Made by a program: the position numbers and the translations under genes. The notes below the pieces were generated by a model. That model worked only from the letters and a program-made list of their open reading frames with translations. It was not told where the DNA came from and ran no database searches. A DNA stretch of 64,000 nt from an uncultured Planctomycetaceae bacterium (GTDB taxonomy: Bacteria > Planctomycetota > Planctomycetia > Planctomycetales > Planctomycetaceae). Location: positions 1 through 64,000 of the forward strand of contig CAWFAK010000008.1 of assembly GCA_963813715.1 (NCBI GenBank), given 5' to 3'. Shown here in pieces: positions 24,671 through 42,367 of this stretch (positions are counted from its first letter, which is position 1; each line of letters begins with the position of its first letter).

Positions 24671-24678
24671 CGCGCGGG

Positions 24679-24921
24679 TGCCATGCCCATCGGTTTCGGT
24701 GGGCATGCGTGATTGCAGCGGAAAACATGCCCACGCCGAGCCGTGAGTGTGTCCGGAAATTCGGTGCCACGGCTGAGACGCTTCGGTTCAGCCGTGCTCT
24801 TTTTGGGTGCTGCTGACGGTTTCTGGACCGCGAAGAGCACGGTTGAGCGAGCTCAACCGTGGCACCCAAGGCAAATCGTCTCTCTGAATTCCCGGACGGT
24901 CTCACGCCGAGCTGTGGGCAG
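24679..24921. repeat. REP-like palindrome pair (CATGCCCAy...GTGGGCA); the second hairpin is interrupted by a MITE
   Basis: CATGCCCATCGGTTTCGGTGGGCATG at 24682-24707; CATGCCC-ACGCCGAGCYGT-GGGCA is reconstituted when 24745-24915 is removed. Confidence 0.7.
24745..24903. mobile_element. 159-bp MITE with 18-bp imperfect TIRs and a 12-bp target duplication
   Basis: Left end GAGTGTGTCCGGAAATTC, right end (reverse complement) GAGACCGTCCGGGAATTC; flanks ACGCCGAGCCGT (24733-24744) and ACGCCGAGCTGT (24904-24915). Confidence 0.75.
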
Positions 24922-41015: not shown

Positions 41016-41136
41016 CGAATGCCGGCGAAATGAAGATCGAGGCGCGTGCCACGGCTGAGACGCTTCGACTCAGCCGTGCTCTTTCCGGCTGCTGATGACG
41101 CTTGCTGAACCGTGAAGAGCACGGCTGAGCAAGCTC

Positions 41137-42311
41137 GAGGGGATCCGGGAATTAGGCGCTCTAAGAGAAAGGGTCTCCGTGGGTTAATGTTTTTTTGTCA
41201 CAAAGAACATTGGCCCCACGGGAGACCCAGGATGGGACATTCTACCCGCGCCGAGAAGCCTGCATGCGTTGGTGAAGTTGATGATTCCTGTGTGCCAGCG
41301 TGCTGGAGAGAGCACCCGCGTCGCGGTCCGGGACGACCACCGGAGATTGCTGATTGGGTCATGCTCGTGCTCGTAACTGTCGCGATTCTCAAATACCGTC
41401 GGAACAAATCGCCCAATACCGATTTCTCAGTCAAAACCGAGCCAAGCTTTTGGAATGGATCGGGACCACCCGGTTCCCGTCACGCAGCACGTACTGTGAG
41501 CGTTATCGAAGGGCCCATCGCCTGTTTCAGGTTGCCGTTCGTCTTCAAGGCAGGTGTCTGTTGAAGCATCAAGTCGGCGACGCACGTTGTGTGGCTGTCG
41601 ACAAAAGCCTGATTCGGTCGTTGGGTCCGAAGTGGCCAAAACGGCTGCGCATCCAAGGAAAGCTTTTGCGGGGTGTGGACCGTGAGAGCACGTGGGGCTA
41701 TTGCAAGCACCATGGTTGGGTCCAGGGCTACTCCTACGAAGTCCTACTTTCTGCGGGGAAAAAGGGACTTGTTGTGCCCCTCTTGGCGTCGGTGAATCAG
41801 GCTCACTGGAGTGAGCACCGGTCATTCCCCGAAAAGATTCCACACTTGCCTCGACCACGAAGTACGTTCTGGCGGATAGCGGCTACGACGGCAATGACCA
41901 CGCTGACGCCATCGAGCGAGATTCGCGTGGCAACCCGACAGGCCGGCGGTTTTTATGCCCTCAAATCTACCGAGGAGGACATCGTCGCCAGCCGGGACCA
42001 TTTCACGACGCACATCGTGCTCGAAGAGAAGTCCGCACTCGCCGGGAGGCGCGATATCAGTACTTCCAGACGAAGACAGCCCGCCTTCACTATTCGCGGC
42101 GAGGCAGAACCGCCGAGCCGTTCCACGAATGGTTCAAATCCACATTGCAACTTCACGAGCGAGCCTGGCACCGTGGCTTGGACAACAACCGCACCCAAGT
42201 TCTCGGCGCCCTGTTCGCCTACCAGCTACTCGTTCGCTACAACCGCCGAAAACACAAACACAACGGCTCAGTTCGCTGGATCCTCGACGGCCTCTGAATT
42301 CCCGGATCCTC
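41137..42311 (+). mobile_element. IS-A: DDE insertion sequence (IS4/IS5-clan-like) with TIRs and a 10-bp TSD
   Basis: TIRs GAGGGGATCCGGGAATT / AATTCCCGGATCCTC; TSD GAGCAAGCTC at 41127-41136 and 42312-42321. Confidence 0.88.
41232..42297 (+). CDS. DDE transposase of IS-A (several frameshifts)
   Basis: GPGRPP, PSRST, VAVDKS, WGYCKHHGWVQGY, VLADSGYD, RGRTAEPFHEWFK; the stop TGA overlaps the right TIR. Confidence 0.85.
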
Positions 42312-42367
42312 GAGCAAGCTCAACCGTGGCACCTCGCCAAGAATCCCTCGCTCCAGCTTTTTCGAGA

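Follow-up and report, generated by a model that had tools for sequence, protein, structure and literature searches.

The DNA considered here, i.e., 'the window', is a stretch of 64,000 nucleotides (C8:1-64000, the start of contig C8) from the genome of an uncultured Planctomycetaceae bacterium (GCA_963813715.1; here G000), the assembly of which consists of 7.49 Mb in 18 contigs at 63% G+C. Its subject is a 159-bp element at 24745-24903, a transposable element of the miniature inverted-repeat kind (MITE) here designated MITE-1. Considered along with it are an insertion sequence (IS), designated IS-A, with one copy further along in the window, and the hairpin repeats which these two elements occupy, i.e., repetitive extragenic palindromic sequences (REPs) of families designated REP-A, REP-C, and REP-D. 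MITE-1 is located between convergent genes, the upstream one of which encodes a PQQ_2 beta-propeller protein. Directly 3' of the stop codon of that gene is a first REP-A hairpin (24676-24708). Open reading frames (ORFs) across 24745-24903 overlap and are spurious, that is, MITE-1 is non-coding. The features of the locus are as follows, with strand indicated where applicable:

24676-24708: REP-A hairpin 1, GGGTGCCATGCCCA / TCGGTTTCGG / TGGGCATGC, the first half of a REP-A doublet
24726-24744: left arm CATGCCCAC plus loop of REP-A hairpin 2, interrupted by MITE-1
24733-24744: left 12-bp target duplication, ACGCCGAGCCGT
24745-24903: MITE-1, 159 bp, IS-family terminal inverted repeats around a REP-C doublet
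24745-24761, plus strand: left terminal inverted repeat of MITE-1, GAGTGTGTCCGGAAATT
24768-24796: REP-C hairpin 1 within MITE-1, CACGGCTGAG / ACGCTTCGG / TTCAGCCGTG
24838-24861: REP-C hairpin 2 within MITE-1, an empty IS-A target palindrome, CACGGTTGAGCGAGCTCAACCGTG
24887-24903, minus strand: right terminal inverted repeat of MITE-1, reading GAGACCGTCCGGGAATT on the minus strand
24904-24915: right 12-bp target duplication, ACGCCGAGCTGT
24904-24920: right duplication plus GGGCA, which is what remains of REP-A hairpin 2's right arm

The terminal inverted repeats of MITE-1 are 17 nt in length and fit GAG-N4-TCCGGRAATT, an end pattern which recurs on the termini of IS-A and of two further insertion sequences, IS-B and IS-C. 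In the form GAGNNNNTCCGGRAATT the pattern is matched three times in the window versus 0.00 times expected (100 shuffles), and 29 times genome-wide. A chance likeness of ends, as one candidate explanation, is ruled out by that expectation. In addition, CTCTGAATTCCCGGA is present at the right ends of both MITE-1 and IS-A. The duplications, ACGCCGAGCCGT and ACGCCGAGCTGT, are bounded by CATGCCCAC and GGGCA, i.e., by what is left of the interrupted REP-A hairpin, hairpins of this family having the form GGGTGCCATGCCCAC-N8-GTGGGCATGGCACCC. REP-C, in turn, is the 'double hairpin' which makes up the body of MITE-1, and positions 24845-24854 of that body are the counterpart of the 10 bp which IS-A duplicates. 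A first-pass annotation of this DNA had described the ends, the right-end motif, and the duplication within a hairpin loop, all of which were found as described, and the pair of inverted repeats, which it had allowed might be unique to this locus, is not.

As single-stranded DNA, MITE-1 is predicted to fold with z = -5.69 (versus 200 shuffles), its left and right halves pairing together. The body consists of two related palindromes, the arms of which pair mutually in this predicted fold. A search of Rfam with MITE-1 returned chance matches to miRNA hairpins only, far under threshold. A structured RNA gene at 24745-24903 was also considered, and that candidate was dropped given both no Rfam family and the mobility that is described next.

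The sister species, G002, is 88% identical to G000 across the flanks of the MITE-1 site, and at the orthologous position is empty, with two flank matches which abut and indeed overlap by 14 bp. What is found there is a REP-A doublet, the first half of which is GGGTGCCATGCCCAC-CGGTTTCG-GTGGGCATG, followed by a spacer, and the second half of which is CATGCCCAC-GCCGAGCC-GTGGGCATGGCACCC, uninterrupted and with a single ACGCCGAGCCGT. The empty site in a relative, as had been suggested for looking into by the first-pass annotation, is in this case exact. More distant congeners possess at the orthologous site neither the REP-A doublet nor the MITE. As G002 has the doublet only and those congeners have neither, the order of events is REP-A doublet first and MITE-1 later. 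The same kind of difference is seen with the MITE on contig C18 which carries an IS-A, in place of which G002 has an intact REP-A doublet, with matches overlapping by 12 bp. It is seen in reverse as well, with G002 carrying a MITE where G000 has an empty doublet (C7:297384-297456). Comparison of one further locus, C5:639675, with G002 instead found an unrelated 157-bp stretch there.

Additional copies were sought in G000 using nhmmer and a profile built on six full copies of MITE-1. This resulted in 52 high-scoring segment pairs, merged to approximately 33 loci, with the whole model spanned by seven. All copies carry the double hairpin, which is to say that it is the body of the element, and the possibility raised by the first-pass annotation, that other MITE copies lack the hairpin, is not borne out. 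Eight copies are two-ended, four of them with a 12-bp direct repeat (matching at 11-12 of 12 positions) and one with a repeat of 9-10 bp. A second family, MITE-2, is 150 bp in length, has the same kind of ends, and is found in a REP-A hairpin with a perfect 12-bp duplication, ACTCAAAGCCGT. What one looks for in a bacterial MITE thus is present with MITE-1: small size, an absence of coding, inverted ends, duplication, presence versus absence between relatives, many copies, and ends shared with insertion sequences.

A number of other observations concern MITE-1 and similar small elements. Two of the two-ended copies, C5:351163-351320 and C8:597987-599338, have unlike flanking 12-mers, with flanks that resemble the REP-A loop (AC-N8-GT); the second is missing from G002, yet no clean single-copy target is seen there. 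Such mismatched flanks could be the product of inter-copy recombination or instead an excision footprint. The copy at C5:1413559-1413742 has a perfect 12-bp duplication, GAATTTCCGCGT, and stands directly next to a lone IS-type end, GGGAGCATCCGGGAATT, having thus gone into the terminus of another family member. The right half of MITE-1, with its IS-A palindrome and a right end that has decayed, is found fused to another repeat ending in GAAAACTGAGCGGCGTAGAAAACCGATCTTGGTTGG in four copies (C7:438275-438364, C17:330329-330410, C5:658681-658779, and C5:556751-556862). A further family of small elements, at C14:33317, C14:36601, and C7:111017 (minus-strand ends), has ends GAGACTGTCCGGGAATTCG and a body with GAGCCCTCGCTCA, and is located at hairpin-like CATGCTC/CGCA flanks. 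Lastly, many MITE-1-like matches are found in G003, a one-contig genome, and in G009, with no match in either to the IS-A transposase at E <= 1e-20, so that the MITE appears to persist in these genomes without an autonomous partner of its IS family.

The other occupied hairpin in the window is that in which IS-A is found, and its parts are these:

41046-41136: left portion of a REP-C doublet that lacks IS-type ends (positions 18-112 of the MITE-1 model only)
41127-41136: left duplication of IS-A, GAGCAAGCTC
41137-42311, plus strand: window copy of IS-A, 1175 bp, transposase gene frameshifted
42312-42333: right duplication of IS-A (42312-42321, GAGCAAGCTC) plus right arm of the palindrome, AACCGTGGCACC

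The first bases of this IS-A, at 41137, are GAGGGGATCCGGGAATT. Altogether there are four copies in G000, two of which are identical, 1183 bp in length, and encode an intact 356-aa DDE_Tnp_1 transposase, with the copy on C18 1170 bp in length. All four (4/4) are found at the dyad of CACGGTTGAGCAAGCTCAACCGTG, at the same nucleotide, and G000 copies are flanked by the 10-bp duplication site, GAGCAAGCTC. The single IS-A of G002 is in a CACGGTTGAGCAAGCTCAACCGTG-type palindrome as well (1/1), in G006 an IS-A-like element has a single end visible, next to GAGCTTGCTCAGTCGTGGCACC, which is the same palindrome, and two metagenome contigs with an identical IS-A protein, L053 and L054, have their copies in the IS-A palindrome (2/2). 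The preference of IS-A for this hairpin, which the first-pass annotation had surmised, is seen with every copy, in G000 and elsewhere, and a location inside of a repeated palindrome at one fixed position is one mark of a REP-targeting IS. That annotation had also placed an IS-A interruption of the double hairpin at 41046-42333. The interruption stands; the element proper is 41137-42311 only, and its host doublet, being without IS-type ends, is a bare REP doublet rather than a MITE. In G002 the match to this site ends at window position 41067, beyond which is a different repeat mosaic, so that no IS-free orthologue of the window site is seen in that genome.

Copies of IS-A are 96.8-100% identical among themselves versus 80.9-89.1% for the 91 nt on their left, and two copies are identical at 1183 of 1183 positions, yet their flanks match at 78 of 92. 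As the IS-A copies are more alike than are their flanks, these insertions were independent and into already diverged repeats. That same comparison is difficult to reconcile with MITE-1 and IS-A transposing as a unit, i.e., as a composite by way of the outer MITE ends, such that IS-A location would reflect co-travel rather than target choice. At two loci, that on C18 and that at C8:597987, G002 does lack both MITE and IS-A, as co-travel would predict. One IS-A, however, is in a doublet that has no such ends, and the G002 IS-A is in a MITE for which the G000 orthologue is IS-free, C5:224066-224226 being orthologous to the right-hand MITE half at that G002 insertion. Such co-travel we thus view as very improbable.

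IS-A could instead have been carried from one REP-C copy to the next by homologous recombination or by gene conversion, with the repeat as the shared flanking sequence and no targeted transposition. This would account for the junction, GAGCAAGCTC, being identical at all occupied sites, and the G002 IS-A is indeed located between inverted MITE halves whose orthologous flanks are on two G000 contigs. Against this, flanks diverge approximately 13-28 nt from the junction, which is too near for ordinary conversion tracts, a 10-bp direct duplication combined with inverted ends is a signature of DDE transposition, and the C18 copy has a different, 77-bp duplication. This second alternative is, if anything, a shade more improbable than co-travel.

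Two IS-A loci are noteworthy in their own right. At C18:63012-64418 (L014), IS-A is flanked by a perfect 77-bp direct repeat rather than by one of 10 bp, with its left end short by 4 bp. This 77-bp repeat begins at the GAG of the hairpin 1 loop in the MITE and extends to the CTC in the middle of hairpin 2. It looks as if the two strand transfers had each used the equivalent half-site of a different hairpin, at a distance of 67 bp, and in the predicted fold the two half-sites are paired. At C3:956459-957838 of G002 (L037), the lone IS-A is between MITE left halves in inverted orientation, with DNA to the left orthologous to G000 contig C7 and DNA to the right orthologous to C5, which points to a rearrangement via recombination between two IS-A copies.

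In G000, 19 other matches to the IS-A palindrome are found (at up to four mismatches), one of these being the duplicated copy by the C18 IS-A. Approximately 18 of 23 IS-A target palindromes in this genome, by our own classification, adjoin at least one MITE end. Multiplication of MITE-1 has supplied most of the IS-A landing sites in G000, which is read here as a by-product and not as a shown adaptation. The first-pass proposal that a MITE could be spreading the safe landing sites of an insertion sequence holds in this sense, i.e., as a pattern.

Which transposase moves MITE-1 is a separate question, and for this the relatives of IS-A are relevant. The transposase matches PF01609 (DDE_Tnp_1) at 39.6 and 38.4 bits (cut-off 23), which places it in the IS4/IS5 superfamily. 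None of the NCBIfam models of IS families (IS4, IS5, IS1182, IS982, and others) score it above cut-off, the best being IS1182 (54.1 and 24.9 bits against a cut-off of 270) and IS982 (31.2 bits against 130). No relative was found by profile search of PDB sequences nor by tblastn against plasmid records. IS-B, at 1184-1186 bp, encodes a transposase which is 51% identical to that of IS-A. All of its visible junctions (9/9) are within CCCAAGC-N3-GCTTGGG palindromes, with a perfect 11-bp duplication in two of three complete copies. Contigs begin or finish inside of IS-B copies (C10:1-1184, C12:1-1186, and C7:1115947-1117125), that is, IS-B breaks the G000 assembly. The sequence following the C12 copy is reverse-complementary to that preceding the copy with which C7 ends, so that the two contigs are probably connected at these ends.

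IS-C is found in a congener, G007 (L009:1482-2585). Its ends, GAGACCGTCCGGTAATTC, are of the MITE type, and it is located within a REP-A loop, flanked by the 12-bp duplication ACCCAAAGCTGT/ACCCCAAGCTGT. An IS from a Pirellulales metagenome-assembled genome (47% identical) abuts a GTGGGCATGGCACCC arm as well. As MITE-1 shares its ends, its REP-A target, and its 12-bp duplication with IS-C, and as IS-A differs in both target and duplication length, MITE-1 most likely, judging from these sequence likenesses, is moved by an IS-C-type transposase and not by that of IS-A.

The alternative is that the transposase of IS-A itself mobilizes MITE-1, with this IS thereby actively spreading its own landing pads. 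The end core TCCGGRAATT is common to both, as is CTCTGAATTCCCGGA at their right ends. Further, MITE-1 moved after the split from G002, meaning that some transposase was present at that time, and it is IS-A of which intact copies exist in G000 whereas IS-C is not found there. MITE-1 and MITE-2, however, occupy loops of REP-A or REP-D, where their duplications are of 12 bp (in one case 9-10 bp), versus IS-A in REP-C with 10 bp, and no MITE-1 is seen within the palindrome of another MITE-1 with a 10-bp duplication. It is with IS-C, rather, that the MITE has ends, target, and duplication length in common, and G003 and G009 have MITE-like matches in the absence of IS-A transposase matches (E <= 1e-20). 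Self-supply of landing pads by IS-A we consequently consider to be unlikely. The first-pass idea of mobilization by an IS-A-family transposase is correct in that MITE-1 is a non-autonomous member of the family; for the transposase of IS-A specifically it finds no support.

Turning to the hairpins themselves, a search of G000 for Y1_Tnp gave eight matches, three of which are flanked by REP-A, REP-C, or REP-D. These resemble REP-associated tyrosine transposase (RAYT) genes, and their regions are C5:265625-266389 (with REP-D), C3:72182-73074 (with REP-C), and C8:601680-602543 (with REP-A). The ORF on C5, 265680-266291, scores 99.2 bits on NF047646 (cut-off 80) and has inverted REP-D to both sides, REP-D hairpins being inverted GGGTGGCACTGGC...GCCAGTGCCACCC. 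REP-D hosts metagenome relatives of these insertion sequences too (L057 and L090). The RAYT-like ORF on C3 matches Pfam Y1_Tnp at 28 bits (cut-off 23) and has a REP-C doublet at each side that is without IS-type ends. A third RAYT-like ORF, C8:601711-602109, has a REP-A hairpin on either side, and MITE-2 is inserted in one of the two. As a further observation, the outer arms of REP-A, REP-C, and REP-D are alike, GGGTGSCA...TGSCACCC. Based on this association of genes with repeats, the hairpins would be REPs of RAYT systems, i.e., those of HUH tyrosine transposases. As REP-C doublets lacking IS ends flank the C3 RAYT-like ORF, the body of MITE-1 would be a REP doublet of the REPIN (REP doublet forming hairpin) kind. 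The double hairpin thus is not a 'cargo' special to the MITE, as the first-pass annotation had taken it to be.

Could it be mainly as REPINs, and through the RAYT beside REP-C, that the landing pads have spread, with carriage by the MITE only incidental? A pair of inverted REPs with a spacer, and the same REP flanking the C3 RAYT-like ORF, are both found, as with REPINs generally. Bare doublets do flank that gene, the IS-A of the window sits in a doublet without ends, and on metagenome contig L053 IS-A is in a single long hairpin. Nevertheless, the unit by which G000 and G002 differ is bounded by IS-type ends and a 12-bp duplication. Also, approximately 18 of 23 target palindromes adjoin at least one IS-type end, and the C3 ORF is apparently frameshifted, at 75.7 bits versus a cut-off of 80. 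Spread primarily as REPINs is therefore doubtful, if somewhat less so than is mobilization by IS-A.

The reading that we favor instead, with a probability of about 0.72, is that of a three-layer stack: REPs of RAYT systems, MITE-1 within REP-A, and IS-A upon REP-C, with an IS-C-type mobilizer of the MITE. As the first layer, several REP families (REP-A, REP-C, and REP-D) would, going by their association with RAYT genes, belong to RAYT systems of G000. As the second, MITE-1 is a transposase-less member of a 1.2-kb DDE_Tnp_1 IS family with ends GAG-N4-TCCGGNAATT, and it entered a REP-A hairpin loop after the split of the sister species, with its 12-bp duplication centered on the dyad. As the third, IS-A, which is of a sister lineage, is by position only at the dyad of REP-C hairpin 2, duplicating the central 10 bp, GAGCAAGCTC, and positions show that it uses this hairpin alike in MITE-1 copies or in a bare doublet, i.e., that at 41046-42333. 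Mechanistically, a two-fold symmetric complex of transposase and ends may read the arms of the palindrome as half-sites, and strands would then be cut symmetrically about the dyad with a spacing that is fixed per lineage. These spacings would be 10 bp for IS-A, 11 bp for IS-B, and 12 bp for IS-C along with MITE-1 and MITE-2. One transposon family, that is, divides the hairpin repeats of a genome among its members.

Several points weigh against this picture. Three of eight two-ended MITE-1 copies have no matching duplication, and some copies are outside of REP-A, i.e., in REP-D (two copies), in a non-palindromic site on C14, and beside the solo end on C5. Three MITE-1 left ends read GAGGGTGTCCGG, like those of IS-B, and as a consequence cross-mobilization by IS-B or IS-A is possible. 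The G007 IS-C is degenerate, its transposase match being in two pieces with one TGA, and no IS-C is found in G000 or G002 nor, beyond the G007 copy, in 12 genomes of the genus, except for a 167-bp piece in G003. With G000 82.6% and G002 87% complete, this census of insertion sequences is partial. Two of the RAYT-like ORFs fall below the NF047646 cut-off of 80, that on C3 (75.7 bits) having a frameshifted look with its N-terminus in another frame, and that on C8 (48.9 bits) looking truncated. REP copy numbers are low, with approximately 12 REP-A doublet loci in G000 and strict motif counts of 16 for REP-A and 4 for the IS-B palindrome, so that 'REP' here means tens rather than hundreds of copies. 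The transposase tree discussed below is a quick one and not a careful maximum-likelihood tree. Finally, IS-A specificity is known from surviving insertions, and purging of harmful ones could add to it; purging alone, however, would not yield the same nucleotide at every IS-A insertion.

Beyond this genus, more than 1200 transposase relatives are found in metagenomes, annotated in a protein atlas solely as 'Transposase DDE domain-containing protein'. For 80 of these loci DNA was fetched, with both ends present in 68, and 47 of the 68 were usable (flanks of at least 24 nt, length of 1100-1210 bp). By a strict rule a duplication was called at 13 of the 47, the missing 34 probably reflecting either short contigs that join flanks of different copies or the rule itself. 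Most relatives at approximately 50% identity have AT-rich flanks, and 8 of the 13 called duplications are 8 bp in length and belong to such AT-rich relatives (AGTTATTT, AACTATCT, ATTTAATT, and AGTTACTT). Ten loci (L053, L054, L056, L057, L058, L083, L090, L115, L117, and L118) are, by eye, in GC-rich hairpins, GGGTGCCAC...GTGGCACCC, with duplications centered on the loop. Among the 13 duplication-bearing loci, four have at least 8 of 12 flank positions complementary, versus 1% of mispaired controls.

On the quick tree, GC-rich targeters require 8 label changes versus 14.5 in shuffles, with none of 500 shuffles as low, and one clade (support 90) consists of 9 GC-rich-targeting rows plus 2 of unknown target; IS-B is nested among AT-rich targeters. 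Since kin share labels, such clustering by target type shows only that targeting is heritable along with the transposase protein. Most relatives are on 8-bp AT-rich sites, and several lineages have switched to REP loops. Similar in several respects is IS231A, which is of DDE_Tnp_1 type, makes 10-12-bp duplications at a symmetric target, moves MIC231 cassettes in trans, and prefers the ends of Tn4430. Its target is a transposon end and not a REP, and its likeness to the present family is one of general features only.

A bolder version of events, to which we give somewhat less than even odds and which is offered tentatively, is that one DDE family has been repeatedly re-tuned, from an 8-bp AT-rich site to at least three RAYT-associated REP loops, with duplications going from 8 to 9-12 bp along with the one 77-bp bridge over two hairpins, with RAYT and DDE systems co-propagating REP-C, and with IS-A dependent on the result. 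Were this true, then the arms of a hairpin would be read by a symmetric complex as half-sites that can be separated, perhaps in DNA that is extruded or looped. Two unrelated systems, HUH/RAYT and DDE, would both be multiplying the REP-C doublet, and IS-A would be relying on that doublet for all of its insertions. Selfish DNA would then form a small 'food chain', with the MITE of one lineage feeding a sister lineage.

The first-pass annotation knew of no description of the landing-pad relationship, for which there is, however, a published precedent. QMITE2 of Coxiella burnetii is a MITE, 150-190 bp in length, that has inverted ends along with direct repeats of variable kind, and an internal REP of which is the target of IS1111. 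Of 21 IS1111 copies 20 are within QMITE2, and when strains are compared the corresponding positions hold MITEs free of the IS (Wachter et al. 2018, PMC5896051). The likeness to MITE-1 and IS-A is that of a MITE with an internal REP which serves as an IS insertion target. There are differences, however. IS1111 is of the IS110/IS1111 group, with a DEDD enzyme, a group in which target choice is RNA-guided (according to PMC11187229), while IS-A is of the DDE_Tnp_1 type with inverted ends and a 10-bp duplication. IS1111 shares nothing with the ends of QMITE2, whereas the ends of IS-A are of the same type as those of MITE-1. Unlike QMITE2, MITE-1 is itself inside of a second REP which is the target of a sister IS.

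Insertion sequences that target REPs are known from five families, among them ISRm22 (IS4), ISPpu9, ISPpu10, and ISPa11 (IS110), and ISPsy8, IS1397, and ISKpn1 (IS3), as described by Tobes and Pareja (2006, PMC1525189). Most or all copies in those cases are at a fixed point of REP palindromes with a palindromic, GC-rich consensus, as seen here. All nine ISRm22 copies are in REPs, a finding which those authors relate to the symmetric target preference of Tn5 (PMC1525189). In the cases covered there, one IS corresponds to one REP family, whereas here lineages are found on at least three REP families and have AT-rich, 8-bp relatives, and one MITE of the present family carries a REP doublet.

REPINs and RAYTs involve REP doublets, as well as inverted REPs to either side of a gene for a Y1 tyrosine transposase (Bertels and Rainey 2011, PMC3116915, PMC3337134; Di Nocera 2013, PMC3733652), and both REPs and RAYTs occur in Planctomycetes (Di Nocera 2013, PMC3733652). 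G000 likewise has REP doublets and inverted REPs around a Y1 gene. Its REPs differ in being, by eye, without GTAG/CGTC heads. In addition, one of its doublets sits within inverted ends of the DDE type, and its movement is accompanied by a 12-bp duplication, which is not expected of RAYT-type mobility. Our literature searches surfaced no MITE that carries the site used by a sister IS from the family to which it belongs itself, though one may still be in print. The landing-pad relationship thus is real as a pattern and has a published precedent; what did not turn up in the literature searched is a MITE which lands in one REP while carrying a REP that is used by a sister lineage, within a family that also has AT-rich targeters.

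What this means goes somewhat beyond one genome. No small repeat is commoner in bacteria than the REP hairpin, yet at the protein level it is not understood why certain jumping genes insert into REPs exclusively. The transposases of the present family, at approximately 50-90% identity, cover three palindromes plus a generic AT-rich site, with spacings of 8, 10, 11, and 12 bp, and consequently provide a compact natural series for mapping those residues which are behind target sequence and spacing in IS4/IS5-type enzymes. The same DNA stretch, for purposes of annotation, can be a 'REP', a 'REPIN', and a 'MITE' all at once. As both a RAYT system and a MITE multiply the REP-C doublet, the success of another element sets a ceiling on how many copies one IS can have. 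'Safe' intergenic landing sites, that is, can owe both their origin and their multiplication to other selfish elements.

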